Below, piece after piece: positions 1 through 54,767 of a DNA stretch of 64,000 nucleotides (position 1 is its first letter; each line of letters begins with the position of its first letter). Under the pieces are notes generated by a model. It did not search any database. It was given only the letters and a program-made list of their open reading frames with translations, and was not told the origin of the DNA. Origin of the DNA: Podarcis cretensis (taxonomy: Eukaryota); assembly GCA_951804945.1 (NCBI GenBank), contig OX638152.1:58466001-58530000 (forward strand). Reading direction: 5' to 3'. A program made the translations under genes and the position numbers.

Positions 1-2863
1 TATACTTTTAACAAGCCAGGAAAATAAAAAAGCTTAAAATAAATACCAGGAGCATTTTAACTTTATGGTGGATTGTGACCAAGAGAGGCAGCTAAAAATG
101 TAAGCAGCTATTTTAACATAAAAGTCTAATTCTGCTTATTAAATAAGATGATCTGGCAACTTCATGAAGCAGGCTTTATGCTTTAGTACTGGCACCACTT
201 AATTTACAGCCTGTCTCATCCTGCATATCTGTTCTCTTCCATCTGTTAATGTTCTGCAGCTTTCCTTATGATAAATACTTGCCTATTAACACCCGTTCCC
301 TCCTCCTAGCTTCCTTCAATTCTTTTCTGAGTGCCCTTTGCCCTACCTGCAATTTCCCCTCTTCCACAACCAAGCTGCTTCTCTGAAGAAAGCTGTCTAG
401 GTGTGAAGAGAAGGCCATGGGAAGGGACAAAGCTGGCATGAGTAAGAATAACTGGGCTGTAGCCAGAATCAAACTGCTTCAATAGCGTGGTTGCACAAAT
501 GGCAATTACATCACTAACAACAGTTGTACGAGTTGTTGTGCTACCGTGCACTCATAAACTTCATACAAGTTGCTATATGTGATCTATTTTTACATCTTAC
601 TTACTTTTGACATAAAGCTTGCTTCACATGGTAAAAATAGATAAAAAGTAGATGGGTGGCTCCAACAGAGTCTGCCTGTGCTGCAGTATGTATTGTTTGC
701 ACACACAAAGTGAGACTGGCATTATAAAATCAATTATTTAACAAGCTGGAGTTAACATGAAAACAATAGGATGGAGCAATTAGAGCTACATGTTGCCTGT
801 AAGAACTGAAGCAGGAACCATTAGTATCCACTTGCTCATTAAAGATCAGTTGTGTCGTAAATGCTGCTTAATAAGCAAAACAAAGTAGCCAAGAGTTGTA
901 TTCATAGCATTTTGAACAAGCCACATATATAAACAATTTCAAGAGCCTCTAAAAGTGAAATCCCTTGAGACCAGCATTCTGTGGCCTGATTTTCATATGT
1001 AAGATTCAGGTTCAAATCTCTGCTTATTCACTGAACTCACAGTCTGGGTCAAATTGTGTCGTGTCCCAGGGTTCTTCCAGATAAGTGCTTATTATGGGAT
1101 TGCTGCTCCTCATGCATGCAAATGTTTTGCTGCAGCCACATGACATGGTTGGCATCAAAATGCCAGCCTCTATTTCTCTTCCCCATTTATACTCTCAGGG
1201 GGAAATCCAGTAAACAGTAACTAAAAATGCCATCTACCTCTTTGTGATATCTCAACTACCCATTTACAAATTAAGGCCCTATCTGGAAGCACCCATGCCC
1301 TAACTTTCACGTCTTTAAACCCTGAGATTAGAATGGTATTTCTGTATTGACCAGAAAAGTGTGAGATTAACAGGAAGCATATTCACCACTGTTGTATGAC
1401 TGCATGGTTGATTCCAGTGTCTGAGCTTTCTCTGCAAGTTAGGAAAATGCACTGGAGCAGAGGAGTACAAGATAAAAACTAGCATCATATATTGGGATGT
1501 TGGGTAAAAAACAAACAACTATTGAAAAATAGCTGATACAATTTTTGGAAGACTTTCTGTAAAGAGGTATCATCTGTACAACTAATTAAAATTTTAAGAA
1601 GCAAAAATATAGCAGATTTGATAAGCCAAACACTTCAAGCAGTGGTAGACCTTGTGGTTTCAAATTTCAGTACAGTAGTGCCCTGTGCAACACCAAAAAT
1701 TGGTACTCCCCCCACCTCTTACACACTATTCTAAGTAATAGTTGTGGCACCCTCAATGTTCCACAACCAGTACAACCGAACCAGTCACGCTCCCCTAAAT
1801 CTGCCTCTGCTTCAAGCATTTTGCCTTGGGTAATAACAGAAATTGATCCCACAAAAGCAGACCAGAAGAGGGGCTCTGGATACATTACAAATAAAACATT
1901 ACATGGTTTTATGATACAGAGATCAGAGATGCTGCCAAACATGTATTCTAAATGGAAAGATGGGGAAACTTCACACAACATTAAACAGGCATTAAACAGA
2001 AGATAATTGTCTCCAAGCACAGTATACATGGGCCAGAAATACATAGCCAATCATGGCTGCCTAGAACATGTTCTCTAAAGCTTGGAGATGCATAGATCCC
2101 TTTCAAAGTTTGTGCATTTAACACAGAAAACAACACTGTAGTTGCAGCAAAGATGGTTGCTGCTCAATTGGATTAAGGGTTTGGCTCCTTTATCCTAGCT
2201 GCATTATACTGATGAATTGTTGTGTTTGATTGAGGTTTAGCATTAGAACTTTTAGGTCTCACACTGAAACCTGGTAATTATTTTCCTGGTAATTATTTTC
2301 CGTATGCAGTATATGCCTCTTAAGTTCAGAACATACTGTGTCTCTGTTTAACCTATAAACCTCACTTAAACAGTGTGTGTTTACAGTTATTTATAAACAC
2401 TGTATCATGTGAGCTGTCATAAAGCACAAACGCGTTCCTGAGCTGGGCCTCTTGCTGAATCAGGTCACTGACTTAATATTGAGTGTCGTCATCTCAAAGA
2501 GTAGAATCTGAACTCCTTTGACTAGTGTTGATCAGAATTCTTTCTCCAAATTCACATGCAACACCTGAAGAGAACAGCTAAACGTTGTTAGCCAAGGGCT
2601 ATCATTGCATGATGAAAGATCTGACTATATCCAAGACTAGTGATACCCCTGGCTTACCTGATCAAGATATGTAGTTCTAAATTGTCAGGTTTGTGCACTT
2701 TGCTTCAGAGATTAACAAATCCAAATAAAGCTGTACATGGTGCAGGTCTCCTTGCTTTAATGATGATCTTTTCAAACCATAGTCTGAAAATCAAGCTGGA
2801 GGGCCCTGTTGTTAGCAATCACCTTGGGCAGCAGAGTTCAGGTATCACGAAAGGACAGCAACT

Positions 2864-3166
2864 TGTGGTGTAGTGCTTAAGAGTGGTAGGCTCGTAATCT
2901 GGTGAACTGGGTTCGCTTCCCCGCTCCTCCACATGCAGCTGCTGGGTGACCTTGGGCTAGTCACACTTCTCTGAAGTCTCCCAGCCTCACTCACCTCACA
3001 GAGTGTTTGCTGTGGCGGAGGAAGGGAAAGGAGAATGTTAGCCGCTTTGAGACTCCTTCGAGTAGTGATAAAGCAGGATATCAAATCCAAACTCCTCCTC
3101 CTCCTCCTCCTCCTCCTCCTCCTCTTCTTCTTCTTCTTCTTCTTCTTCTTCTTCTTCTTCTTCTTC
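2864..3166 (+). mobile_element. tRNA-derived SINE (Squam3-like) with (CTC)n(TTC)n tail
   Basis: A-box-like TGGTGTAGTG.TTAAGAG and B-box-like GGGTTCG. Body is near-identical to the copies at 17283 and 39882 and ends in ATCAAATCCAAA plus a microsatellite tail. Confidence 0.85.
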
Positions 3167-3225
3167 ATGATCTAATTCATTACTGTTGTGTTTTTATTGC
3201 CAGAAACAGGTGCCTGTGGGGTTTA

Positions 3226-3411
3226 GGGAAGAAATGTAGCTCTGTGGCAGAGCATCTGTTTTGCATGCAGAAGATTTAGGCTCAGTCCCTGGCATCTCCA
3301 GGTAGGACTGAGCATGTCCTCTGTCTGAAACCTTGGTGAGCCACTGCCAGTCCGTGCAGATGGTACTGAGCAAAATGGTCTAACTCATTGTAAGGCAGCA
3401 TCCTGTGTTCC
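3226..3411 (+). mobile_element. Older tRNA(Ala)-like SINE with LINE-derived tail
   Basis: GTAGCTCTGTGGCAGAGCATCTGTTTTGCATGCAGAAG head and TAAGGCAGCATCCTGTGTTCC end. Partial relatives at ~31610-31700 (+) and ~63020-63080 (-). Confidence 0.7.
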
Positions 3412-6400
3412 GTCTCAGAAATAAAATAACTTGACCAGCCTTATACGTGTTGCATCATGGTCTGCGGACACTGCGGGTGGAATGCATTATTTGCTGCACC
3501 ACCTCAGGGAACAAAGTGTCTGGTGCTCACCCTTTTTAAAGAAAGGGGGAGAAGTGACAAGAAGGAACCACATAATGAACCAATCTGGGACATTTGAGTG
3601 CTTAACCTCCACCAGTGAATATGGGTAAGTAGGGAAAAACATTTAATCACACATCGGGGGTGGGGGAGACTCCATCCTAGTAAGTCCATGGGTTTTCATA
3701 GCACAAATTGGTTAATATTGTTTGCATTTAGCAGTCAGGAGAGTATGCCAACTTGGAATGAGCTGTCTCAGGGTGTCTGAATACAAGAATCCCATTAGGT
3801 TTTTTTTTAAAAAATTCTGATGTTCCTGTTATTTTAAAAAACAACAAATCAAAGTGGCATCTTTTTACAAGAAACTCAATACGTTGAAGAAATGCAGCAT
3901 CTCTGCTTCCAGACTCTCATCTGTATCTTGTGTGAAATGATCAATAGGGAACTTTAGCTTCAGGAAATTATTTCAAAAGGGGGAGGGGGAGAGACTGAAT
4001 GCTTATATTTAACAGCTTGCTTATTACCACAAAACCCCAAATGATTTTATTTATTTGTAGAAGATCTAGAATATGCTAGAGTCCCTATGACTAAGGGATT
4101 TTTCCTCCAGTGTAATTAAGACTTCCTTGCTCACTCGTAACCATAACCACAAGGTTAAACTGTCCCCTCTGTTCTTGAGAATTTCATCTTTGAAAAATGC
4201 ACTGAACTTCAGCCGCTGCCAAAATGCAGGGATGTGTCCTCCACAGGCATTTTCAGTCCAATGCAGAGCCACAGCCCAGGTATGTGACTAAGCCTTAGTC
4301 ATATAAACAGAAAGTGCTCATGTTATATTAGTAATTGTCATCCCTTCTCAAGCTGGCACTATATAGTTTCCTTTTTTAACGAGCTCCCACAGTGTTTCAT
4401 AGCTGGTACACAAACCCGCAGACTATGAGTGCTAAAGACTCAAAGTACAGAAGCTCTTGGGGCAGAAGCATGTGGTTCTGAAACCCACAAGACCCCAGGA
4501 AGGCATTATTGGAGAGGGGATACAAATTTCAGGGGGCAGGGAAATGCTAATTGTCCTTACAGAAATGTATCCTCAAGAAATATATCCTCTCAGCCATCTG
4601 AGAGTTTTATCTTAATTTCCACCAAGCAGTAATGGGTAATAGCATTGTGCGAAATTTGGAAACAGGTGAAAAAAGTGTAGGGGGGATTGTTTTGTGATTT
4701 CTATTTAATAATGGAAAAGCCTACTGCTTTTAAAAAAAATGTCATTTCTCACTGTCACTCAGCTGTATCTTATGAAGAAGTTTGCTGCCTACAAAAATAA
4801 GCTCACACTAGAGTAAACCCACTTCTGCTACAGGCTTACTATTTTCATTCTTCCAGAATTTGCTTCCAACAGATTCCATATATGTTTGTGTGTGTGTGTG
4901 TGTGTGTGGCCAACAATTATATCTGATGGGCCATTTGGAAGAGGGAGTGGGAAGCTGGCTAAAACCTAATTCCATCACACACCTGCACATTTTTCACAGT
5001 ACCCTAATGGAAAAATCCCACCACCCCCCCTCACCATCCCTGCATATTCCCCTCCTTATTCCATATAGTTTGGGATGCAGTAAGATAATGCGAAAGGCTG
5101 TTGCCCAGCAACAGTCCCACATTTCTGGAGTTCTACTTCTGTCCTTGCTTGCCAAAAATGGTAAAAGACGTGCAACATTTTAAGTGTGTTGGAAATGGTT
5201 TGAACACACATTCACCTACCTACTCATTTTGGCACTTTCTTCCCTCCTCCACCCTCCTCCCTCCTCCCTCACCCAGCCCATGGATATCTCTTAAGCACTT
5301 ACATTTTCCCAGCTGCTTCTTGAAACTAGAACTGAGATGTGGTGAACATCACTCCTCTTCTTGCCTATTTAAAGAATAATTTATATTAACCTGACTGGTA
5401 CGAGATCCAGCCGCACAGAACTAGTTCCCATGCTCCTCAGGTAATGTTAGAGGGTTACTTGAATTCAACATTGATAGGGCATATGACACCTGTCAAAGGG
5501 TCAAATATACCCAGGAAGTTATCAGCTGTGACTCATTGTGCTTACATGTAATGTAGATAGATGCTTGCTGTAAAAGAAAACTAGTTGAGTATTTTGTATA
5601 TGTGGAAACTGTTACATCTCAACCCTACCCTGAAGTGAGAAGCCCTGAATTTGAACAAACTCTACTACAAGGAGTGTATATTTTGGGTGAAAAGTGAGTA
5701 TAAAAGAAATGCCTGTTTCAGTTTGAAAGAAACCTAAAATGATAGGGTTCTCTTAGCAGAACCCAACATTTTTAGTTTACATTTCCTAGAAATTTGTAAG
5801 GAGAAACTTAGTAAAAGTCCTTATGAACTTGGAACATTCCAGTTCCGGCATTGAGAGAAGCTATTAACTAAGAGCATCACAGAAAAAGCTACTTCCAGTC
5901 TGATTTTCATATTAGCTAAGGCACATTTAACAGTAAGAAAGGGTCTCTTAATGCATTTCCTTTGCAGAATAGGCCAAAAGACTCTGGAATTAGACAGGGA
6001 GAAGTTATGTTCACTGCAGTGAGCTGCTTCTGTTAAAAGTATATTTTTTTGCCTCAAACGAAAAGAAAACAAACAAGTGTGTGTTTGGGTTTATGAAGCT
6101 GAGCTCATCACCAGAAAATACACTCCCTCCACCACATGATGGAGCAGAAGGAACATGTCTAGACATGAAGCCTGTGTAATACCTGGGGCAAGAGGTGTCT
6201 TTGCCAGAATTAACCAAGGTACTGAAGGAAGATGGCCAAGAAAGAGGAAAGGAAAGGTTTGGAATCCTTGACACTGAATCAAAACTAAATATTTTTGTGG
6301 GGAACAGACTGCCTCAGCATTGCACACATGTGCTTATAGTTGCCAGAAGCAAAATATTTAAGACTCTTTACATCAGTTACCTTCAATATTCTTAAGATCT

Positions 6401-6757
6401 GTCTAGTTGTAATCTCTGTCTCTCTCTCTCTCCTCCTCTCTCTCTACATTCACCCATCTACACTTCTCCGAATAGACTGACAGACATAAATCAAAGCCCA
6501 AGCAAAATGTCGCAGTCATATAATCTCCCCCCACCCCTGGCTGAGATGTGGAGAAATGAACAGTTTCCCAAGCCTCAACATGGTTGGTGCCAGCACATGA
6601 CAGGATCAGGCAGGTGCTTAGGGACCAGAATCGCCTCTTCTAACAGTGAACTCAAATGGTGAGTGCTGAAACAAAACAAAAAGAAAGAAAGAACACTTTT
6701 TTAAAAAATGAAAGAGGCAAAAAAAGTGGAGAATGGGGTGAAAACAGCCCACCAATG

Positions 6758-6893
6758 CAGTGGCGTAGCGTGGGGGGTGCAGGGGGGGCCGGCCGCACCG
6801 GGCGCAACATCTGGGGGTTAGGGAAATCCACTGGTTAGGGGGCGCAAATTACTTGCCTTGCCCCGGGTGCTGATAACCCACGCTACACCAGTG
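6758..6893. mobile_element. hAT-type MITE
   Basis: Imperfect terminal inverted repeats (TIRs) CAGTGGCGTAGCGTGGG / CCCACGCTACACCAGTG. Perfect 8-bp TSD CACCAATG at 6750-6757 and 6894-6901. Confidence 0.9.
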
Positions 6894-7629
6894 CACCAAT
6901 GCTTATGTATCCACCATGACGGTTCATTTATTTCTTGAAATTTATACACCACTTGATTGTAAAAAGAAAACCCTCAAAGCAGTTTTAAAAAAGATAAAAG
7001 AATAAGACTGAGAAAAAAATCGCAACCATACTTTAAAAACATACAAAAGTTAAATCTGCTCATAGGATAATGGCCGTCTGGATTCACACAATGGTCATAG
7101 ATTTTTGTATCCCTGTTTTCTATTGCATACGAAATTTATTTCCCTGGCAAATAAGTTAGAGCTGGGGTATAGCTTTCCTGAATCCTAAGAGAGCACAGAC
7201 TGAAAGATGAGAGTGGTCATTTTGGAGGAAAGCTTGAACAGATTCCCTCCCTCCATCATTTTCTATTATGGCTGCTAAGTAGTCAGACAATACCTGGCCT
7301 AACTTACTCTAGAGCTTTTAAAAGCTGGTTGATATGCAGAACTCCATGGGTGAAGCTTATCACGCCTAGCAATAATTGCTGCAGGACAAGTGGCTGTTAA
7401 AGGCACAGATGGAGGGCCCAATTCAACATTTATCAACCTTTTTTCATGTAAATTTATTTGAGGCCTTAAAGTAATTTTTCTTTTCTTTTTTGCCTTTAAG
7501 TAATTTTAAGATAAATTTGTCAGCTTGCATTTTCATCCTAATCAAAAAAGAAAATCTAATTCAGTAATTATTAGTAGCAGATTCTGACAAATAAATTAAA
7601 GCTGCACTGATCCCTATGTTTCGTTAATA

Positions 7630-7871
7630 CAGTGGTACCTCGGGTTAAGAACTTAATTCGTTCTGGAGGTCCGTTCTTAATCTGAAACTGTTCTTAACCT
7701 GAGGTACCACTTTAGGTAATGGGGCCTCCTGCTGCCACTGCACCGCCACTGTATGATTTCTGTTCTCACCCTGAAGCAAACTTCTTAACCCGAGGTATTA
7801 TTTCTGGGTTAGCGGAGTGTGTAACCTGAAGCATCTTTAACCTGAAGCGTCTGTAACCCAAGGTACCACTG
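7630..7871 (+). mobile_element. Tc1/mariner (Tigger/pogo-like) MITE, copy 1
   Basis: TIR CAGTGGTACCT...AGGTACCACTG with TA TSD and repeated internal TAACCTGA motifs. Confidence 0.92.
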
Positions 7872-8002
7872 TAGTCAATTTATGAACAAGACCTGCATTG
7901 AAAAAAAAAATTCTGGTTCATTTTAGCATGTATTTGCTATGGGCTCTTGGGTAAAGGGGGGGAATCAATATATTGTTGTGTGCTACCTCAGTCTCCCAGC
8001 AG

Positions 8003-12090: not shown

Positions 12091-12883
12091 TCCTCGGAGC
12101 TGACCAATGAGGCATTTATCCAATATACACACTTACTTTCCACCTCAAGAGGGCTTTAGGTAATTGTTGTTTGTCATTTAGCTCTGCGCCTGGTACTAAT
12201 TTTCAGCTTGTCATCCTTTGACTCACAGGAGCTCTTTCCTCTCTGAAAAGGATGTATCTCCCAGCTGACCATGGAAAAAATGTAACATGCAATTCATTCT
12301 TTTTCCTGATAGCTACCAAAGATGAGAAGCAAGTTAGAACAACTTGATGAGGAAGTCCTGTCATTTCCAAAAGGAAGTGTGATTCACTATGCAGGACATT
12401 TTTGGGAGCCTGAATCAGAGCTGTCGAGGAAGTGAGTTCTTGGACAGCTTAGCCTGAAACATCACATGGCTTAGGGTTAACTGTGACTTCTCCAGCAAGC
12501 ATTCATGACTTCCTTCTGTAACCAGCAGAAGATCAGATTACAAGGCAGGGTGAAGAATTGGAGGATGGGACAGAAATGCTTCAGACTAAGCAGTCCTAAC
12601 ATTAACTGTTGAAAAACAGTTTATCACTCATTTTTGCTATACAAATAGACCAGGGAAAAACATGTTCCATAAGTCTGAAACATAAAGTCAGGAGGTGAAT
12701 TAGAAAGGCTATTACTTTAAAATGATGTGATCCTGAAATAAATGCTAAGTAAATTGCTAAATAGCTCTACAGCAACAGACTCCAAAAGGCAATATACTAG
12801 ACCAGGGGTGGTCAACCTTTTTATACCTATCGCCCACTAATGCATCTTTTTTGATGGTTGATCATGCTTTCTTTTTGTATATA

Positions 12884-13098
12884 CAGTGGTACCTCGGGTT
12901 AAGTACTTAATTCGTTCCAGAGGTCCATTCTTAACCTGAAACTGTTCTTAACCTGAAGCATCACTTTAGCTAATGGGGCCTCCTGCTGCTGCCGCACGAT
13001 TCCTGTTCTCATCCTGAAGCAAAGTTCTTAACCTGAGGTACTATTTCTGGGTTAGCGGAGTCTGTAACCTGAAGCATCTGTAACCCGAGGTACCACTG
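12884..13098 (+). mobile_element. Tigger/pogo-like MITE, copy 2
   Basis: TIR CAGTGGTACCTCGGGTTA / TAACCCGAGGTACCACTG with TA TSD. Confidence 0.92.
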
Positions 13099-14119
13099 TA
13101 TTTTTTTCAAGGATAAACTATCAAGTCTTCTATACAGAGAGGGCACAAATAAGCAGGATATTGTCCTTTCAAATAGGCTAGCATGGAAGAACTTACTGGT
13201 GTGCTATGTCCAGAAAAAACTGTGAATGCCCAAGTATGAACTATATTCTCTGAGTTAAGGGTGTCTGCTAAGCTTTTTTTCAGATGCTGATTGGTATATA
13301 GCCACTGAGCTACAAACCTTGCATTTGATGAACGTGAACTTTCATGTTACATCGATTTACCTGACATTCAATAGTAAATATCCCAAGCTGTAATATGTCA
13401 ACAACTAGAGGTCTGATACCCACAAAAATAACTAAGGTCTTAAATGCTGGTAATAAGATTAATTTCTTTCAGGTTTTTTTTCTGGGTTTGATGCAGCATT
13501 TAACTTCAAGGTAGTCTGGGGGACAGGGGGATGATCATGACAAAATCTTTCTCAGACAATCTTTTTCTAAGTCCACCCATGATGCTGTCTAGCCAAAAGA
13601 TTGCATCTTAAAACCAACTTACTTAAATTCCTCTTAATATTTATACACCACCTTTTCCCATAAGAAACTGCATATAAGCTATGCTGCCCACCTGCCCCAG
13701 ATACCCCTGGTACTGAATTTAGACTAGTGTGACTACTAAGGGGAAAGCAAAGTCGTTTTCATTTATTTATGGTTTGAATAGCTCCAGCTCTCAGAGTTTA
13801 GCTGATGTGCTATCTAGCCCTGTAGAAGCTCAATTAACACTACATTATTAGTTTGCATATTTTACAGAGGATGGGCTAAATAAGGGTAGTTTAAGTTGCT
13901 GCCAAGGAAACTAAGGAGCATTTCAGACAAGATCTTCTCTCTCATTCATTGCTGCAGCCCAAGGGAGTTGCAGATAAAAAGGGGAAAGAGGCAAGTTGAG
14001 CTCAGGTTCAGATGCTTCAGACATGGCTGCTTATTTATTAGTAGGGACAAGGAGATATTCAATTCAATTTGTATTTAAATCTAAGAAATTGTCCCCTTCT
14101 GAAACAATATATGAACAGA

Positions 14120-17647: not shown

Positions 17648-18547
17648 TTGCGTGGACAGGCGGAGTCCCCAGGTCCCGAGCGCCCCCCCCCCCCGTCATA
17701 TGGAATAACGACTCAAGACAACGTGCTATGGGATTAAATTGGCCACAACTTTATTAAATTTCAAATGTGGGTAGACCTTGGCTCAGGCATTGGGCGTTCT
17801 CCCTCCCCAGTCCCCAGCCGGGGACCTAGGGAGCATCAGGGTTATCCAGTGTGTGTGTGTGGGGGGGATGGGCCGGCTCTGGAGAACATATGTTCAAGCA
17901 GAGATAGCCGCCTCCGTTACGCCGCCGCCGCAGGGGAGAGCAATGACGACCTTTCGGCGTACGGTCAAAGCCTCCCTTCAGAAACCCCTTTAATGGGGAA
18001 CCCTGGTATCGCCGCTGCAAGAGGAAGATGGACAAAAGGATTCTGCCCAAGGCCTGATACCGCCAAAGTTGTGATGTTTTGCTACGGGAAAGGCGAAACC
18101 TGCCAATGCAGGGAAATTCCTTGCCGGCCCTTTGACAGCGACCTTAACGTAGCAGCGCCCGCATACCTGTAAGAAATGTTAACCTGCAAAACCTGTGAAG
18201 AAAAGTTAACCTGCAAAATAAGGCATTAACTGAGGGTGGGTAGGGTGGGAGAAGCTCTGGAGCCAAGTGAGGATTCCCAGGTAAGATCCTCCCTCTATTG
18301 TGTGGGCAGGTAATCCCTCCCCCACCTGGCCTGATCTCCTTGGCAACGCTTCCCCCAGGTGGGATTGGACAACTGACTGGGGTAGGCGGAGACCTCCAGG
18401 TATCCCACCTGAGGGAAGGCAACGCCAAGCCTATGCTGAATGGAGCTGCTCCAGATCCAGGGGCTGCGCGCGTCCACACAAAGGTCGCCCCCCGTTTTAT
18501 GCAGGGAGCGGTCATTCTAGACCCCCTTAGACACCTGCTGTGACAGG
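17648..18547 (-). mobile_element. Non-coding Ngaro/DIRS-related element (putative non-autonomous YR retroelement)
   Basis: GC/CpG-rich island. The minus strand has AATAAAGTTGTGGCC (15/15 identical to 53309-53323) and ends GCCTGTCCACGCAA, versus GCCTGGTCCTGCAA in the YR element. TTTGC direct repeat at 17647-17651 and 18548-18552. Confidence 0.7.
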
Positions 18548-19806: not shown

Positions 19807-20319
19807 TTATTATTTATACCCCACCCATCTGGCTGAGTTCCATGGGAAGACTTCAGATGTTCACAAATGGATTATTGAAGCTGTACTGATTATTTTTCAC
19901 TCTTCCCTGAGAGGAGGACTAAATTTGTTCCTCTCTTCCCTTATACACTTTTCAGCATCAATGTATTCCTTAAAAAACCCAAAAGTATAGGAGAGATTTA
20001 GAGCCATTTGCTCCTAGTCTGACAACACAAAGACCAACAGTAAAAATGAAGGAAACACCTCCATAAAATCCCTTATTGTAGTGACTGCTGAAATGCAATA
20101 CCACCAGACAATTAGACATAGGTGTCTGTGATGTAAACAACACGACACAGAAACATTTTCCCATGGAGGGCAGTCTGGCTGAGGGTAAATAATAAAAAAA
20201 AAGCTGGGACTGTTGAGGAAAATTAAAGAGGGTATATAATAAGAGCAATCATATCAGGTCATGCCAAACTACACATGATATAACTGAGTTAACAGAACCC
20301 TAAAAGGGCACATTGCAAG

Positions 20320-21735
20320 GTCAAAGCACATAAAGCGTTTAAAAATCATATTGTCAGAAAAGCACTGTTTAACGTCTGGATAAGATATAAGGACTTGCTC
20401 GAAAATAAAACCCCAAGGTGGTTGTCACCAATGGAAGCGAAGGCTCAGAAAAAGCTCAATATGGAGGCCAAATGGCTAAAATATTGGGAAATTCTGGAAC
20501 AAGAGGGAGATAGATTAAAACTACAGACTTTTGAAAAACTAAAAGAGTGCGGGATTGGCTCCATTATTATCAAATAATGAAGGCATATAATCTAGACAAA
20601 AAAATTGGCTTCCAGGTGGAAAAATCAAAATTGGAAATAGAGCTGTTAGATCCTAAAAGTAAGAACTTGTCAAGAATGTATAACTTGCTGTTGAAATGGA
20701 ACACTCAGGATGAAATGGTGAAATCAGCTATGATTAAATGGGCACAAGATGTTGGACATAATATTATGATGGCTGACTGGGAACAGTTATGGATCACTGG
20801 TATGAAATTTACAGCATGTAATGCCTTAAGAGAGAATATAATGAAAATGATTTACAGGTGGTACATGGCACCAGTCAAGCTTGCAAAAATTTACCATTTG
20901 CCCGATAATAAATGTTGGAAATGTAAAGAGACTGAAGGCACATTCTTTCACCTTTGGTGGACATGCCCAAGGATTAAGACTTTCTGGGAAATGATCTACA
21001 ATGAAATGAAAAAGGTATTTAAATATACTTTCCTGAAGAAACCAGAGGCCTTTCTCCTGGGCATGGTCGGCCAATTGGTGCCAAAGAAGGATAGAACTTT
21101 CTTTATGTATGCTACAGCAGCAGCAAGAATACTTATTGCAAAGTACTGGAAGACACAAGATCTACCCACCCGGGAAGAATGGCAAATGAAGGTGATGGAC
21201 TTCATGGAACTGGCGGAAATGACTGGCAGAATCCGAGACCAGGGAGAAGAGTCGGTGGAAGAAGATTGGAAGAAATTTAAAGTTTATTTACAGAAACATT
21301 GTAAAATTAAGGAATGTTAGAAGGAGGCTGGAATGAAGTTATGTGGCTTTAGCAGAAATATTATAAAGGATTAAGTAAAAATAGATTGTTAATGGATGAA
21401 AGGAGGAAAGGTAAAGTTACATTATATTAAGATAAATTATAGGATAAAAATTGGGAAAGATGGAAAGGATTTGCTGAAATAGCTAACCGAACTAGAATAC
21501 AAAAAAGGGAGGTGCGAGGAGGTCAAGGAAACAAGTAAATGAAAGATAAGTTATGGGAAGGTTCGTTGTGTTTTTTAATTGTTTCTATTTTTCTGTTTTT
21601 CTGTTTTTTTATAATTCCCCCCCCCTATTCTCTTCTTTCTTTATTGTGATGAGTTATTAAGTTTTTGTTTAACTTGGAATTATCTCTTTTTCTTTTTGTA
21701 ACATTTGAAACTTTAATAAATATTATTTTTTTTAA
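20320..21735 (+). mobile_element. 5'-truncated L1-clade LINE (ORF2 C-terminus, CCHC zinc knuckle, 3' UTR), copy A
   Basis: ORFs 20395-20577 and 20547-21320 separated by one frameshift, with CWKC-x6-FFHLWWTC. AATAAA at ~21715. 18-bp TSD AAAAGGGCACATTGCAAG at 20302-20319 and 21736-21753. Confidence 0.95.
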
Positions 21736-24229: not shown

Positions 24230-26292
24230 GACAAGATGGACTGTTTCAAGAAGTGGCAGAAAGATATTTCAAGGTTTGTCTGGCAGGGCAAGAAGTCCAG
24301 AATAAAATTCAAGATATTAACTGATGTAAAGGAAAGGGGTGGGTTTGCCCTGCCAGACTTTAAACTTTACTATGAATCAGCAGCATTCTGCTGGTTGAAA
24401 GATTGGCTGCTTCTTTCTTAATTTCTTCGAACTAGCTAAAATGACGCAGAGAATTAGAAACCAAAAGAATACAAAGTTAAATAACGACTGGATTAAATAT
24501 ATGAGATATATTGAAGGTAACTATAGTAACCTACCAAATATAGCAGGCTTGTTATGAAACTTTCGATGTATAGATAGATCAAATAATCCAACATCAGCTG
24601 TAAAAATGAAACTTTTAAAATTAAGAACCCGAAATCAGGAGGGAAGGAAGTCAGCAAGTATGTGTTATGTATCAGTTTATTTTTATTATTTTTTCTCATT
24701 GCTTTGGTGCTTTTTTTGTCACTTTTTTCTGTTATTTAATTTAATAAGTATTGGGCTTAATGCAAATCTTTTCTTTTTTGTATTAGTTGTTGTCTTAAAT
24801 GGTTTTGTCTTTTCTTTGTGTGTGTGTGATAAATGAAACTTAATAAAAAAGAATATCAAAAAAAAAAAGAAAGATTGGCTGCTTCTTGAGAACACTGACA
24901 TTTTGGATTTAGAAGGATTTAATAATGCTTTTGGGTGGCATGCATATTTGTGGTACGACAAGGTTAAAGTACATAAGGCATTTAAAAACCATATTGTCAG
25001 GAAAGCATTGTTTAATGTTTGGATAAGATATAAAGACTTATTGGAAAATAAAACCCCAAGGTGGTTGTCACCAATGGAAGCGAAAACTTTTAAAAAACTC
25101 AACATGGAGTCCAAATGGCCAAAATATTGGGAAATTTTAGAACAAGAGGGAGACAAATTGAAATTGCAGAGTTTTGAGAAATTAAAAAACAAAGTGCGAG
25201 ACTGGCTTCATTATTATCAGATAATGGAGGCTTACAAATTGGACAAGAAAATTGGATTCCAGGTGGAAAAATCGAAATTAGAAACAGAATTGTTAGAACC
25301 CAAAACTAAGGTTTTGTCAAAGATGTATAACTTGCTGCTGAAATGGAACACTCAGGATGAAACGGTGAAGTCTGCTATGATTAAATGGGCACAGGATGTT
25401 GGACATAATATTATGTTTGCTGACTGGGAACAGTTGTGGACCACCGGTATGAAATTTACGGCATGTAATGCCTTAAGAGAGAATATTATGAAAATGATTT
25501 ACAGGTGGTACATGACCCCAGTCAAGCTCGCAAAAATTTATCATATGCCCGATAATAAATGCTGGAAATGTAAAGAGATCGAAGGTACATTCTTTCACCT
25601 TTGGTGGACGTGCCCAAGGATTAAGGCTTTCTGGGAAATGATTTATAATGAAATGAAAAAGGTACTTAAATATACCTTCTTGAAGAAACCAGAGGCCTTT
25701 CTCCTGGGCATGGTTGGCCAATTGGTGCCAAAGAAGGATAGGATTTTTTTTATGTATGCGACAACAGCAGCAAGAATACTCATCGCAAAATATTGGAAGA
25801 CACAAGATCTACCCACTCTGGAAGAATGGCAGATGAAGATGATGGACTATATGGGATTGGTAGAAATGACCGGCAGAATCCGAGACCAGGGAAAAGAGTT
25901 GGCGGAAGAAGATTGGAAGAAGTTTAAAGACTATTTGCAGAAATATTGTAAAATTAATGAATGTTAGAATGATGTTGGACAGAAATCAAGTGGTTCCCAG
26001 CTGTAATGCTTTAAGAGATATGGAAAATAAGGTTTTGAAATAAGCAAAAACAAATGGAGAGGATTTGCTGAATTAATAATTTGAATTGGAATATAAGAAG
26101 GGGAGGTATGAGGAGGTCTGGAAAATAAGTTAGAAGAAAATAAGTAAAGGGAAATTTTATGTGTTTTTTCTTTTTCTTTTTCTTTAGTGGTTTTTGTACT
26201 CTTTTTGTATTTTTGTATTTTTGTGGTTTTTTTTGTTGTTTTACAATGTATTATTTTGGAAAGTTTCAATAAATATCTTATTAAAAAAAATT
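24230..26292 (+). mobile_element. 5'-truncated L1-clade LINE, copy B, interrupted by a nested L1
   Basis: ORF2 pieces FVWQGKKSRIK...GGFALPDFKLYY (24230-24415) and 24888-25967 join in frame. 14-bp TSD AAAACTGAGCTTGT at 24216-24229 and 26293-26306, at a TT/AAAA-type site. Confidence 0.96.
24416..24868 (+). mobile_element. Nested 453-bp 3' end of a different L1 family, with poly(A)
   Basis: Encodes LNFFELAKMTQRIRNQKNTKLNNDWIKYMRYIEG, homologous to the ORF2 end MDFMELAEMTGRIRDQ...DWKKF. Has AATAAA and poly(A). 19-bp TSD GAAAGATTGGCTGCTTCTT at 24397-24415 and 24869-24887. Confidence 0.93.
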
Positions 26293-35625: not shown

Positions 35626-38625
35626 CTCCTTCTTTTGCCATCCTCAGATTTAATTGTTCTTTCCCCCCAATTCCTTCCTGCTTTGAAGTAATTATTTTCC
35701 CCTTATTGCCCCACCATGGAATTAACTGCTCTTTTCCCTTGATGCAGCCCGCTCCCCATAAATTGCTTTCCCTCCAACCCCAAAAGGAACCCACTGGCCT
35801 TCTTCTCCCTTCGCCTGCCCCCCAATTCAAAAGGCATTGTAATGCCATGTAAATGCATTGTGTCTTACACAAACAAGTTTTATTAATAAAACAGTAACTC
35901 AAGTCGGTTGGACTCCAGACAATCAAAGTGCCACACTGTGATTCAATTAAAAAGAGTTCTGCTCTGCACAACTACCTGCATGCTGCTGTGATGAGTCACT
36001 GAGGGAGGGACTGCCCCTCCCTCAGATGACTCAGAGCTGCAGTATGCAGGAGGTTCATGCAATTCCCTGCTAGAACCACTAACAGCAAATATATATATAT
36101 ATCATGCAGCTTTACCAATCTGGTGTTCTCCAGATGTTTTGGAGTACAGCTCTTGCCAGTCCCAGCCAGAACAGCCATGTCCAAAATGTTTGGAAGACAC
36201 CAGAACAGGGAAGGATAGTCGAATGCTCCACCACAGACTGAAGTTATACCAGAGGGAGCCATTTTGCCAGGCTGCAACACCACAAATTTATTCCTATTTT
36301 TTTCTGAATAGGGCAATATGAACTCATGGTTGATGCACATTGCCTGGAATAGGAGGGAAATGCACATGCCCAATTATTTCTAAATGTAAACAGGCAGCAG
36401 CTTCTCCTTGGAAAGCCAATTTCTATTTGCACTTGAGCTCTATTACTAAGGAAGGAATTGTGGCAGTACTTCAGATTCAAAAGGAAGCATAACATATAGG
36501 AATTGTATTAATTCAGTGTTATTACAGCATGCAGCATTAATGTAGTTCTGCTGCAGAACCAGGTTCTGTGGTTAATGAATAACTTTGCAGTGCTGGAAGG
36601 AACCAAGCCTATCTCATTTCCAGAGCTTCAAAGGTGCACCCAACCCTGATGGAGGCAGGTACTGACTAAGGTATGGAGACTCAGAAGAGCCCAGACAGTT
36701 AACTAGGTTTTTTCCAAAGAGCTTGTGTTGACTGATGAAGCCTTTCCCTTTTTAAAACATACATACTGGTGGGTTGAGTTCAGACAGTTATTACAGTATC
36801 CTCTGCCGCCAGTGTAAAATGTGATCTTATTCATTATTTGGGAGAGAGATTGGAATGAAATGTCAAAAACAAAAAACAAAAAAATGTTTTTCTTCACTTG
36901 GCACAAAGAGTTCATAATCCGTTTGCATACACTCTGCAACAGCATGGAAATTGTCTCCCCCTGAGCAATAATTATGGATTAGGTGATGTCAATATTTCTC
37001 AAAGAGATAAAGCAGGAGTGGCCATCTCCCAGTCGGTGGACCACATTCAGGGCCCCAATAATCTGACTACAGTACAGTGTCAGCAGTTCATTACTTTTTT
37101 TGGGTAGCTGATGCTGTTGAGCCCCACTGGAGCTTGTTATTCTATACATCTCCCCTTCCCCATATCCTTTGACCCCAACTCCAAAACATTGCTTGCCATG
37201 GGATACTGTTATTACAAGAGCATTGGCTGAAAACTGTGAAAAGTAAGGAAGAACAGAACTTCCTGTATTGTGGAGCAGTGGAATCAGTTCAAAAACAGTC
37301 CTATATCTAGCCATGATGTATCATTGGCTGTGAATTCATCTATATTTCATTTTACTGTTCACTAGTATTACATGTAAAACTGAACATGTTATGACTACAG
37401 AAACCTGGGTCTCCTCCCTTTCCCCATCAAAAAGACTGCTGTTTACAATACTCTTTGAAATGCCTATTGACTTTATTAGCTGTGCATTACTTCTCATAGT
37501 CCAGCATTTGGGGTGTCCCTCTGCCCCTGGGCTAATATGATTCCCCCATTCATTGGGACAACGCTGGCTTTTTAAAAGAAAGAAAAAATACCTGATGTAT
37601 TGCACAGAAATTTTTGGAAATTTGTATTACTGTCTTGCTCCAAGGGCTCAGTTTATCATTTTTAGGAGCATGCCAAATTGCACATGGTGGTTTGGGACAG
37701 TACCTTTTTTTAATTGCAGATAATTACATGGCAGACTCTAATGAGTCAGTGGAAGGTTTTTCCCCTCCCTGCATTCCAATGAATTCATATGGGTGTGGAA
37801 GGGAAAGGAAGACTTGAGAAATAGTGTATTGGCAGAAAGACACAGATGTTGATTCTGAAGTATTACTATATAAGGCTTTTACTGACAATGGTACTTTCTT
37901 CCATGCTGAATTTGTAAGGGAGCCAATCACATTTCACCCAAAACTAGCCCTCAGCAGAACAATGGGACATGTGCTTTCAAACTAGCTGACTTGAACATAT
38001 CCTCTACAAAGAATCCTACACTTGCATCTCTTTTTATTCCTTTAAACTTATGGAACAAATATACAGCCAAACTCATTAAAAGGCAGATCCTATAAAATGC
38101 CATGGAAAAGTGGATGTTGCACAGAGGGTGCAACACTTTAAAAATGCACTGTGAGTGGTGTTCTATTTATGTCTGCTGATACTTTTCTCAGCTTGTTTTT
38201 CCAATACAAAGCCATGTCCCACCTTGGCAGAGTATTTTGCAAAAGGTAACCAGCTCTCATTCACTGTAAGAAAATCAACCAATAAAAGCAGTTGCCTCCA
38301 GGCAAATTTCTTGTCTTCATTATCAGAAATAGAAGCACATATGCTTGTTTCTAAATAAACAGCATGCTCTCTGCATTTCTCAAATAGTAGACCTCGTTTC
38401 AGTCTACAACGATACAAGCCATTTTTCACTCTTTGACACAGCATATTCCACTTACTACATAAACCAGGTGTAAGCAACATGGTGTCCTCCAGACATAGTT
38501 GGACTTCTACTCCCTTACTAATGTTAAAAATAAACTTTTTAGAAAGTACAAAATTAAGCTGTCACATTGAAAAAAACAAAGATGTTAGATTTTTAGCTTC
38601 TTTGTATTGATAGATTTTATATGTA

Positions 38626-38867
38626 CAGTAGTACCTCGGGTTACATAAACTTCAGGTTACATACGCTTCAGGTTACAGACTCCACTAACCTAGAAATAGT
38701 ACCTCGGGTTAAGTACTTTGCTTCCGGATGAGAACAGAAATCGTGCTCCGGCGGTGCAGCGGCAGCAGGAGGCCCCATTAGCTAAAGTGGTGCTTCAGGT
38801 TAAGAACAGTTTCAGGTTAAGAATGGACCTCTGGAACGAATTAAGTACGTAACCCGATGTACTACTG
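38626..38867 (-). mobile_element. Tigger/pogo-like MITE, copy 3
   Basis: TIR CAGTAGTAC...GTACTACTG with TA TSD. Reverse orientation relative to copies 1 and 2. Confidence 0.92.
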
Positions 38868-39881
38868 TACATAGCTTAAATCAACAAAAGCCATATTTGG
38901 TCATATACCAAATGATGGAAGAACATTACTGTATCAGTTAGACATTGGGACTACTATCTGAATAGTTCCGTTGGAAATGGCTAGGGACCAAAGAATTTTG
39001 TTGGGATTTTTCTTTCTAAAGTTGGAGACTGTGGATGATAGTCAATATTAGTCAGACAGTAAACTCATTGAAATCATTGGGTCTCCCATGACACAACTTG
39101 GTTGGCTATCACTGAAGAAATTGAAATTTATTGAATATTTGATGCCGATTCCTATAAGCTAATGGCATAGTTGTGACTAAAAGCAACCCCCAATTTGCAC
39201 AGGGGTTGCATTCCTGGGTCACACGCATGTCAGTGGAGTGTACATAAGCCCACCCCACCCATATTACGCCTTGTTATGCCCCCTGTTCTGCCCTCTTCTG
39301 GGTCCAAACAACCCATGCACCGGCTGTCGACCATCAATTAAACATGTGCAAAATGGTCTCTGTCTGTATTTTTAAAAATCTATAAATAAAGATTTTGTAA
39401 AAGATACAAAAATGTTCTATATATTTGGAGAGAGGAGTCTTTTGGTGACACTACAGATTGGTGACACCACAGATTGCAGCAATCAGGACCATCCAGAGCC
39501 AATTGCTGATGCAAACTTGCAAAGCCCTCTTTCCTGTGGTGTTTACCCCAGAAGATGAATGGCATGTTTGCACTGAATGCAATGAGAGAGATTTCATATT
39601 GGCCTCGCTGCTCTGGAAGTGTTACATCTGATTTCACTGCCAGATTTCAGTATCAAGTTATCGCCAGTTTAAAACTTGCACAGCTTACCTTGCAGACTTT
39701 TTAGGAGCTCAGATTCCTGCTAAGTCAGGCAAGTGCATACCACAGAAATGTCAGCTAGACGTTGAAATGCAGAATAGAATGAGAGGAGTGGAATCTGTGC
39801 CAGGAGACGGTCACAGGAGTATAAGATGGTCACCAGGGGCCCACAAACTGTGGCTGAGTTTAGTAGCCAACCATTCTTTTT

Positions 39882-51269: not shown

Positions 51270-52420
51270 GACAACTACTACTTCATCTGCTTTTCTATCT
51301 TATAAAAAGGCATGGGAGGAATTTGAAACCTTCACTTCCAGCCTCACACCCTCTGCTTCAAACAAGGGTCCTGTGCTACAGTTTGGCACCATGTGTGCCA
51401 GGTCCACCCCCTCAGCACCAATGGAAGGGCAGGTTCTGCAATACCTTGCCCATCGTAGGTCCATGGGCAACGCAGCCAAGACCTTAACTGTCCAAGCGAC
51501 TGGTATTACTTTCTTTTCCAAATGCTTATTCTCCATTGACCCTTGCTTGGGATTCTTAGTTAAGAAGGCAATGGAAGGATGGCATAGATTGACTCCCCCC
51601 AGCTCCATATAAGCGCAGACCCATAACCTTCGACATATTAAAGCAAATTTGGAGATTATTGCCATCGATTTGCTGGTCCCGCTTTGAGTACAGTGATACC
51701 TCGGGTTACATACGCTTCAAGTTACAGACTCCGCTAACCCAGAAATAGTACCTCAGGTTAAAAACTTTGCTTCAGGATGAGAACAGAAATTGTGCAGCAG
51801 CGGTGCAGCAGCAGCGGGAGGCCCCATTAGCTAAAGTGGTGCTTCAGGTTAAGAACAGTTTCAGGTTAAGTACAGACCTTCAGAACGAATTAAGTACTTA
51901 ACACGAGGTACCACTGTATAGGCTCTTCAGAGCAGCATATTCTGTGGCCTTCTTTGGGGCACTTAGAATAGGTGAATGTGTGCCTGTGCAGAATAGAACA
52001 AGTGGGGCTGGTTGGGGGTGAGGCTTCTCATTAGCGATATCTCTCTTTCCCCATCCTCTGTTTACATCAATATCCGGGCTTCAAAAACGGAGCAACTGTC
52101 CAAAGGTGCTTCAGTTCACCTTCCCACATTTGGGGGTGTGGGCCCATGCCCAGTGAAGGATGTTAGGCATTTTCTTCAGTTGTACCCCAATGTTGATGGC
52201 CCCCTCTTCATTCACGAGGATGGGTCCCCCCCCTGGCCAGGAATCAATTCTCTAGGGCCATGTAAGGCAATTACCAGGTGTGGCCTGCAAGCCCAGCAGT
52301 ATGCCACACATTCATTCAGAATTGGGGCAGCCACCACAGCTTGAAGCTGAGGTGCTTCTGTCAAGGATATAAAGGCCATGGGCAGGTGGTGGTCAGAGAC
52401 CTACAGGAAGTATATACACG
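51270..52420 (+). pseudogene. Tyrosine recombinase of a DIRS/Ngaro retrotransposon (frameshifts, stops, MITE insertion)
   Basis: SYKKAWEEF; KRRPITFDILK; after MITE removal ICWSRFEYRLFRAAYSVAFFGALRIGE (catalytic Arg at 51965-51967); SKTEQ; CPV; PLFIHEDGSP; HSFRIGAAT (HxxR); MGRWWSETYRKYI. Confidence 0.95.
51691..51916 (-). mobile_element. Tigger/pogo-like MITE, copy 4, inserted in the YR gene
   Basis: TA TSD at 51689-51690 and 51917-51918. Excision restores the YR frame. Confidence 0.94.
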
Positions 52421-52467
52421 GCCACCATCAAAAACTCACAACCTAGTTTATCACAATTTTTTTGCAG

Positions 52468-52997
52468 GTTCTTCTAACAAGCATATCTGGATTAGGGGTC
52501 ACAGTATTGTGCATTGGGCTCGGATGCACGCCATCACCACCGGCCTTGGAGCTGCGCTTGGGCTCCCATCTAACATCTTGATTCACTAGTTTGGTTGCCA
52601 GGGCATGAAGTGGCCTGCATTTATGCCCTTAATCCTGCCAATGGGGGAAAACAGTTTGGGCCAACAAAAGAGCATTGATCATATGTGGGCCATAATTGAG
52701 GACTTGCAGATGTTGCACAACTTGTACCCCTCCATAAGCCTGGGGTGGTCCAAGATGCTTGAGACATGACAATGGCACAACCCAGACCCAGTGGGTATTA
52801 ACCAAGCTTGGAAAAAGGCTAATCATGCAGTGAGGCGGAGCATACTCCAGTGAGGTGGTTGGGTAGTTTTCCACCACAAGATCACATTCTCAAATGAGGC
52901 ATTGTTTCAGCCCAATGGCATGCATCTTTCCTAAGCAGGAAACCATATTTGGTTGAGAGATATGATTGAAGGCAATAGGGCATGGATGCAGATATGA
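52468..52997 (+). pseudogene. SGNH/GDSL-type hydrolase ORF of the Ngaro element (4 in-frame stops)
   Basis: One frame carries block I IWIRGHSIVHWA, block II GCQGMKW, block III GENSL and block V LFQPNGMHLS*AG..IWL. Confidence 0.85.
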
Positions 52998-54181
52998 GTG
53001 GTTTGGCGGTGAGCATTTGCTCGGTGGGCGGTTGGGCATTGGGGCAATCCTTTGTTTTGGATGGAGGGGAGGTTGTAGTCTCCGCCTGCCCCTCCAAACG
53101 CTGGGGTATTTTGTTAAAGGGATCCGGGGGGAGTGGCCTGGGCCAGGGCCAAAGGCACTCCCCCAGACAGTGGTCCCTGTGGGGGTTGCCCTACTGGATG
53201 TAAGTCTTAGGAACCTCTGCCTGGATTGACCACGCGTCACTTCCGACGGGCGGGCTGGAAGTATTTAGATTGCCCCATGCCGAAGCCAAGCCTCTTTCAT
53301 CTGTATTCAATAAAGTTGTGGCCTGTTTTGACCCCAAACCAGTCTCTGTGGTCTCTCATTATACAGGGGTATGGGAAGTCCGATGCCTGGTCCTGCAAGA
53401 AGAATTGTGGATAAGCTGTAAGTCTTTACATAATACTTGGATATAAGTATGGCAGTGCAAATTATAGTTGCAATTCTTGTTACACAATAGGAGCATCCAA
53501 CATGTTCTATGGCAACCCGGAAATGGGGGAAAGAAAGGTGTGTATTATCAGGTTTAATAGAAATCTTAACGTAAGAATTGAACTCAGTCACAAGATTTCC
53601 CCAATGTGCCTCAAACTTGGCAAGTAGATTGGAAGATATCCAGACTATCTGAGTGCCCAGATCTTGTGGCACAGCCAAGCAGCCTGGAGGCCCACCTTTT
53701 ATATCTGTAGCAAAAACCTTCCCTTGCATACACTTGTACTAGCTTACACAACAATCCAGTCATTCCTCAAGTATTTCTTTTATAACACGTTAATGAGTGT
53801 GCATCTAATAGCGTGAGATTAAGAGTGTTCTGCTTTGTATACAAGTAGTCAGCACCTGTAATGGCAGGTCAAAGGGAAAAAAGGGAGGAAGTGCTTTTTG
53901 AAAGACATGGAAGACTCCAGCTGGCATTCCTGCCCTCTGTCATGTGCCCTGCAGTGCTCCAACAGAACAGGAAGAAACAGGAAAGGGGCAGAGTTGTGGG
54001 AACCAGGGTTGGGGGGTGTGCAATGTCCCATTTCCACCCTAACTTCAGTCACTTTGCAAAGGGGAACAGGAATGCTGTCAGTCCCCTCTGACTTTCCTGT
54101 AGAACAGGAAGCCTCAGTGGAGGCTGGCAGGACTTTAATCAACTGAAGTGGCAGCGACTGAATAGAGGCATTAGGTTGCAG

Positions 54182-54767
54182 TGTTGTCACCTAGGACCAG
54201 CTACAGTGGTACCTCTGGTTACAAACTTAATTCGTTCCGGAGGTCCGTTCTTAACCCGAAACTGTTCTTAACCTGAGGCGCGCTTTCACTAAAGGGGCCT
54301 CCCGCTGCCGCTGCCACACCACTGACCCACGACTTCTGCTCGCATCCCAGGGCAAAGTTTGCTACCAGGAGCACCTACTTCTGTGTTAGTGGAACTCATT
54401 ACTGGAAGCATTTGTAAGGAGGATGGTACGTAACCCGAAGTTCCACTGTAATGCCTTTGCAGATGGGAACAGACCTATATGCCTTGACAGAGCCTGTGCT
54501 TATATTCCAGGTATTCTCACAAGGCAAGAGAGCCTTATAAGTAGTGCCTCATCTATAAAAGCTTGGTGGAATGGCTGAGAAACCTGTTGGGACATCTTTG
54601 TCACTTCCGTTCAGTTCTGAATTTCTTGCCCTGCTCCTGAATAATGACTCCTGAGCACTGCATCTGCTGTGGAGCCTGTGCCATTACTTGCCTGAATAAA
54701 GATCTCTTCCTTCCTTCCAAGTGATATTCTCTGCCTGTATATGTTGCGGGGGAGCCAGGACATCACA
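54182..54767 (+). mobile_element. Putative solo LTR interrupted by a MITE
   Basis: TGTTGTC start and GACATCACA end. TATA box CTATAAAAGC at ~54553 and AATAAA at ~54695, in LTR order. No clean TSD. Confidence 0.5.
54204..54448 (+). mobile_element. Tigger/pogo-like MITE, diverged subfamily, copy 5
   Basis: CAGTGGTACCTC...TTCCACTG with TA TSD. The left half matches copies 1 and 2, while the right half is diverged. Confidence 0.88.

Follow-up and report, generated by a model that had tools for sequence, protein, structure and literature searches.

The CpG-rich, non-coding piece on the minus strand of the window (the whole 64,000-nucleotide stretch of Podarcis cretensis DNA that was analysed) is almost certainly a stand-alone 3' unit (A2-C-B2) of a ~8-kb Ngaro-like tyrosine recombinase (YR) retrotransposon family. 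The initial annotation had offered two readings of it, an internally deleted miniature of TRIM or MITE type and a Ngaro-like YR retroelement reduced to a solo terminal repeat, and the second is the one upheld, the piece being equal to the 3' A2-C-B2 tail of the parent. Internal deletion does not describe a copy that holds no internal sequence and is identical in layout to the tail of the full parent. Nor does the unit show the paired terminal repeats, short interior and target-site duplication (TSD) of a TRIM or MITE, as it has one A, one B and no TSD. The parts of the unit, and a YR fragment elsewhere in the window, are as follows.

17648..18516, minus strand: whole solo unit A-C-B (869 bp), most of which is covered by 39 of 39 other scored copies at 93-96% identity
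18248..18516, minus strand: repeat A (unit 1-269), which full elements carry as A1 at their 5' end, from A1 matches and junction counts
18495..18502, minus strand: TATA-like GCATAAAA (CTTAAAA in young copies), a putative promoter motif recognized from its sequence
18066..18247, minus strand: spacer C (unit 270-451, 182 bp), found only between A2 and B2 and in solos
18182..18218, minus strand: tandemly duplicated acceptor-like block in C (TTTTGCAG followed by GT), single-copy in several family members
18070..18160, minus strand: predicted motif of nested stems (P1, P2 TGCTACG/CGTAGCA, a side hairpin, P3 and an inner hairpin) at the 3' end of C
17648..18065, minus strand: repeat B (unit 452-869), which full elements carry as B1 after the hydrolase ORF, from alignment to parents
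17750..17755, minus strand: AATAAA in B, a likely poly(A) signal (predicted use) ~100 bp from the end
51298..53398, plus strand: YR fragment with broken YR and SGNH ORFs and a single B repeat, for comparison only and not a partner

Of the ~900-bp range first reported (17648-18547), the 869 bp above, which include the AA at both ends, are element, while the last 31 bases (18517-18547) are flank and were matched only at the window's own locus among the fetched loci. The description of a CpG-rich island in AT-rich DNA holds (56% G+C and a CpG observed/expected ratio of 0.57 in the piece, versus 41% and 0.22 in the whole window), as do the motifs named at that stage, all of which were found in the sequence, including the TATA-like motif near the 5' end and the terminus, where the piece ends in GCCTGTCCACGCAA. 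The acceptor-like motif TTTTGCAGGT is likewise present, in two places (18209-18218 and 18182-18191), but it belongs to spacer C and is not derived from the hydrolase acceptor. As to the young age proposed from the retained CpGs, the window copy is not one of the youngest members of the family: its closest copies are 96.6% identical to it, versus 98-99.8% among young family members.

A tail-to-head pattern, in which a unit end is joined to a unit start, occurs at 30 loci (0 for the control pattern), and at 27 of the 30 part of B1 is followed by an entire A2-C-B2 unit; those excluded are L083, a chance junction match at an old solo, and the degenerate L084 and L092. The parent layout is A1-ORFs(RT, YR, SGNH)-B1-A2-C-B2, and A1 in L067, L068, L072, L076, L081, L085 and L088 corresponds to unit 1-269, after which internal sequence begins. 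The full element L068 spans 8020 bp, with matches above the cut-offs to RVT_1 (E 4e-11) and Phage_integrase (E 1e-6) and one to Lipase_GDSL_2 slightly below its cut-off (E 5e-7, 31 bits against 32.9). The parent's match to RT_RNaseH is weak (E 0.16), a 519-aa ORF of it that bears a Cys/His cluster matched nothing in Pfam, and its ORFs gave no DDE integrase (rve) match at E<=1, nor any methyltransferase family at E<=1 in the four scanned. Among the characters of Ngaro elements, the parent shows split direct repeats (A1...B1 A2 B2, plus C), RT followed by a tyrosine recombinase, and SGNH after the YR, and it would be classed from its sequence as a Ngaro layout with an added spacer C. Chlamydomonas TOC1 has a similar unique spacer. 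Within one element, B1 and B2 differ by 0-23 mismatches and A1 and A2 by 0-5. Permuted integration (A2-C-B2-A1-ORFs-B1), expected if a two-junction circle were opened at random, was found in 0 of 27 loci. The real candidates for a TRIM-like element are short copies (1.3-2.8 kb; among L063-L091, L096-L112 and L201-L226) that retain A1, B1, A2, C and B2; the breakpoint differs in each, and multiplication was seen for none of them. A 112-117-bp stretch of the SGNH ORF (position 6249-6365 of the L068 element) is tandemly repeated two to four times in many young copies (L065, L066, L067, L070, L072, L074 and L081), together with a deletion of 6451-6594, which indicates that hydrolase-broken lineages went on spreading.

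The YR element 35 kb away, with which the initial annotation had paired the piece, is not its partner and belongs to another, distant sister Ngaro-like family with its own solos (L033, L036, L037, L041 and L042), a broken YR and relatives at 77-84% identity. In tblastn searches with the L068 proteins, the fragment matches YR in pieces (33-65%) and SGNH (40%), with no RT match at E<=1; it has no A, no tail and one B repeat only. The claimed minus-strand likeness to its 3' region is real for the B repeats, which align above chance (238 identities in 454 columns, or 52%; score 134, versus 78+-11 and a maximum of 102.5 in 200 shuffles), but not for the piece as a whole, for which BLASTN gave one 19-bp match (E 0.053) and whole-length local alignment a score of 324 (100 shuffles, 278+-14, maximum 333). 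The reported distances of TTTGGCGGT from the end (420 bp, and 397 bp in the fragment) are right, but the fragment's copy at 53002 lies upstream of that family's B, which begins at ~53030. The identical AATAAAGTTGTGGCC occurs in both, at 17741-17755 and 53309-53323. Derivation of the window piece from the fragment is ruled out by the weak alignment, the separate set of solos and the B identity of only 52%. The YR ORF of the fragment is broken up by a ~230-bp repeat (51689-51918), other copies of which lie at 7620-7873, 12873-13100, 38623-38869 and 54193-54450, and a weak SGNH-like tblastn match at 58639-58926 (E 0.21) is possibly another decayed YR element.

High copy number, uniform length and common ends, which had been proposed as a check, are all found in the organism's own genome (1.5 Gb), where the search gave 2346 first-look candidates and where 38 of the 39 scored copies reach to within ~10 bp of the unit's 3' end. 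Exact junctions across the whole genome number 947 for C/B, 1002 for A/C, 52 for internal/B1, 36 for A/internal and 30 for B1/A2, all of them lower bounds, with internal-junction patterns that may miss old subfamilies; solo units come to ~1000 copies, a ~30-fold excess over ORF-bearing copies. All 86 C/B matches listed for contig C1 were taken, of which three are tails of longer elements and 83 fall in 82 loci. These loci comprise 71 complete units (856+-12 bp) and 11 partial or interrupted ones, and internal sequence was found in 0 of the 82. The unit ends read AA/TGACC...CCACGC/AA; 66 of the 71 complete solos start with AAT, 70 end with CAA, and the next base is T or A in 66. By analogy with DIRS-type circle junctions (PMC7192593), these ends would fit insertion by a recombinase at an AA core. 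One old solo (L083) lies behind flank resembling the element's own 3' end (TGTCCATACAA), a target perhaps chosen by its likeness to the junction, and at C13:33336632-33342181 three C/B junctions are spaced by exactly 2763 bp, probably through local tandem duplication.

Read as AA/TGACC...CACGCA/A, the ends resemble the TG...CA of an LTR, and a 15-mer is common to the unit and the YR fragment; units of this kind can be mis-annotated as solo LTRs. That the piece is in fact an ordinary solo LTR, or a deletion derivative of the YR fragment, is nevertheless scarcely credible: a 4-8 bp duplication is missing from 63 of the 65 solos tested, the parent encodes a YR, has no rve match and bears split repeats, and the B repeats of the two families are too unlike. 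The structure of the parent, its encoded YR and the missing TSDs refute this reading.

As to how the solos arise, the evidence leans slightly toward many of them having originated at the reverse-transcription stage, with the parent's recombinase likely inserting them afterwards at the AA core; a mixture of birth at reverse transcription and chromosomal recombination is likely. The parent transcript would lack the outer ends of A and B, and the B1/A2 junction would serve to rebuild them, a role modelled by analogy on the DIRS-1 ICR. Reverse transcription would proceed from B2 towards A1, often stopping or switching template, such that a microhomology switch onto the A end would give rare deleted copies, and a B2-to-B1 switch the tail-less ones, while the seamless A-C-B unit would come from either homologous switching between A2 and A1 or stops within A2, with later chromosomal recombination probably contributing further solos. 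Possibly, with a chance approaching but not reaching even, solos are the usual product, reverse transcription from B2 mostly ending or switching at A and the A/C capture point being set by the C stem.

Four observations (an A-end deletion hotspot, jumps into C, equal ages and a flat tail-less share) point to the reverse-transcription step. The ORF-side copies examined number 61, 28 with a tail and 33 tail-less, and A1 is present in 46 and missing from the stretch in 15. Among the 46, deletions classed by eye include a large one beginning <=556 bp from the 5' end in 32 copies (a count that leaves out ~6 private deletions further inside), and 25 of these 32 begin at A 220-261, about the last 43 bp of A. 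The right ends of these 25 are all different (1185-6887) and crowd toward the 3' end, 15 of them within 1 kb of A2, and the overlaps at the joints are 0-9 bp. Of five solos with a deletion in the A-end/C region, four jump from A 238-250 into C, one of them being L267, with 99% identity to L068; two more solos, with starts at A 191 and ~A 218, came from a second deletion search, so that strictly 4 of 7 lie in the zone. Private changes give young solos no greater age than young copies with a tail (2.66, n=32, versus 2.91, n=23; p 0.97). The tail-less share, computed on the 52 internal/B1 loci with five lacking A1 excluded, does not fall in short copies (13/19 short versus 15/28 long; Fisher p 0.37). 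For retroviruses, PMC3187697 describes efficient deletion of direct repeats in the course of reverse transcription, at a frequency that grows with distance, and a preference of at least 1000-fold for homologous over non-homologous switches. Given that preference, the 29 visible microhomology jumps would imply many invisible homologous switches, the product of which would be a perfect solo.

Three of these observations may have another source. Recombination soon after insertion would leave the same equal ages in solos and tails, selection against long copies could account for the flat tail-less share, and tails that first acquired the jumps into C could have collapsed afterwards. The ~350 young solos against roughly 25-30 tail-less copies come near the 15:1 ratio of repeat-pair distances (our own arithmetic), and break-induced chromosomal deletion would give the same. 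Moreover, the solo:tail ratio climbs with age, from ~15:1 in young to ~100:1 in old copies (C1 solos: 32 young and 39 old, corresponding to 352 and 429 after scaling; tails: 23 young and 4 old), which means that tails are still lost after insertion and counts against birth at reverse transcription. Alternatively, most solos might be post-insertion products of chromosomal recombination or single-strand annealing of A1 with A2, like solo LTRs, formed early on from a still hemizygous insertion with identical repeats. This is a strong rival, if less likely than not: a crossover between A1 and A2, which differ so little, would leave exactly the observed product, the ratio grows with age, and solos stand beside tails in every young subfamily. 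It is also the reading given for the Cafeteria solos in the available text of PMC8547959, and for HERV-K the rate of recombination is described as declining with age (PMC4335370, available text). However, recombination leaves the A-end hotspot unexplained and sits poorly with tails that are no younger than solos. It also fails to predict that young short copies are tail-less in 7 of 13 cases, where a rough competing-rate model expects 18% (p 0.004, the model being crude).

A further possibility, the main idea of the initial annotation, is that A-C-B is a non-autonomous element in its own right, transcribed from A, borrowing the parent's RT, YR and junction template and founding further solos. 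The ~30-fold excess, the uniform length (856+-12 bp) and the retention of the TATA-like box, the C stem motif and AATAAA would all suit such an element, as would the window copy's own subclade of nine copies, which has no tail-bearing member in the sample. The tree (71 solos of contig C1, 27 tails, and the window copy with six copies close to it) nonetheless makes this quite unlikely, since solos and tails interleave within every young subclade, such that solos follow the lineages of the parent, with no sign of a young solo family of independent descent. The nearest solo (99.09%) and the nearest tail (99.01%) of young copies are about equally close, and a solo-only young lineage was found nowhere among 32 young solos and 23 tails; in old subclades the tails are too poorly sampled to judge. 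A solo transcript would, in addition, be missing the B/A junction. The RNA data come from four runs of an organism possibly of another species, with 6-12% of each run read. In two bulk runs the YR-SGNH region is covered almost solely on one strand, whereas A, C and B are covered thinly on both, and the low signal on both strands speaks against a transcribed solo. The four runs, which are uninformative for the germ line, showed no pile-up of RNA starts or ends over the element, and no cDNA, circle or dedicated solo transcript was observed. Spliced copies were not found either, neither among the 71 solos nor among the four matches of the second deletion search, 0/4 of which join donor to acceptor. 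At L068:6935, RNA reads (4 and 8) join upstream sequence to the base just after the TTTCAG before the hydrolase ORF, which suggests that this acceptor is used.

Spacer C carries a motif that extends well beyond this family. A loose pattern for its 3' part matches 3825 places in the genome (control, 3), and the first 30 pattern loci form several groups of roughly 800-bp units. One of them, L233, forms the tail of a further YR-SGNH element, whose B1 and B2 are identical, and the junction in L233 reads GCAA/AGCC rather than GCAA/TGAC; L233-L262 include several further ~800-bp A-C-B families with the C motif and a CCACGCAA-like end. A four-helix structure fitted to 26 sequences from several families pairs 94.9% of 567 cells, versus 31-55% for slid controls, the structure having been chosen after inspection of the sequences and the core of helix 4 being contained in the search pattern. 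Changes on both sides occur in 6 of 22 pairs, and the covariation score was reached by 0 of 500 shuffles; these sequences are related and provide few independent change events. Folded over its full length, C does not outdo shuffles (z +0.84), while its 3' core alone does (mean z -2.0 in 27 copies, with 5' arms picked for best pairing), and Rfam gave no gathering-level match in the unit or in five loci. A role of the motif in priming or in fixing the A-end capture point is a guess.

Solo units of this type are already known, as Cafeteria solo AB repeats and as the SIRE of VIPER. The available text on the Cafeteria burkhardae Ngaros (Hackl et al. 2021, PMC8547959) describes isolated A+B units genome-wide beside an A1-[ORFs]-B1A2B2 parent encoding a YR, as here, and suggests recombination as their source. 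The present units differ in the 182-bp spacer between A and B, in their ~30-fold excess over ORF-bearing copies and in deletion scars that point to a reverse-transcription step. SIRE of Trypanosoma cruzi, as far as described in Ribeiro et al. 2019 (PMC6681497), consists of A2, a ~30-bp exclusive region and B2 of VIPER, the same three-part anatomy in another superfamily and host; the unit described here is about twice as long, with a longer spacer that carries a paired motif. Whether SIRE is mobile with VIPER's help or a mere remnant is left open by the authors in the available text (PMC6681497; PMC12278014). The Xenopus Ngaro-like DIRS-53_XT shares the split direct repeats, the gag-like, RT-RH and YR ORFs and the SGNH hydrolase after the YR, with an A of 236 bp and a B of 152 bp; the available text of that paper yielded no mention of a spacer and does not contain the word 'solo' (PMC9210276). 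DIRS-1, as described by Malicki et al. 2020 (PMC7192593), needs an internally placed copy of its end-to-end junction to rebuild the termini, and its integration leaves a short core on either side, as proposed here; its repeats are inverted, unlike those of the present family, in which the equivalent role of B1/A2 is inferred.

The A-end deletion zone and the solos that jump from it into C are new here. In the literature searched, no solo Ngaro units in squamates, breakpoint zone or spacer motif were found, and an earlier description is possible. Were solos indeed mostly born at reverse transcription, SIRE-type elements would be the main product of replication and not products of decay. On the rebuilding of the ends, the literature consulted offers experiments for DIRS-1, and none for the split-repeat YR retrotransposons (Ngaro, PAT, VIPER). 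Both the SIRE question and a split-repeat replication model become testable in this genome, given ~1000 units from a single family, dozens of parents with deletions that begin in a sharp zone, and several sister families that share the spacer motif.

Elsewhere in the window, 20316-21320 and 24837-25967 hold two related copies (86-87%) of one reading frame, which we take to resemble the 3' end of a LINE ORF2.
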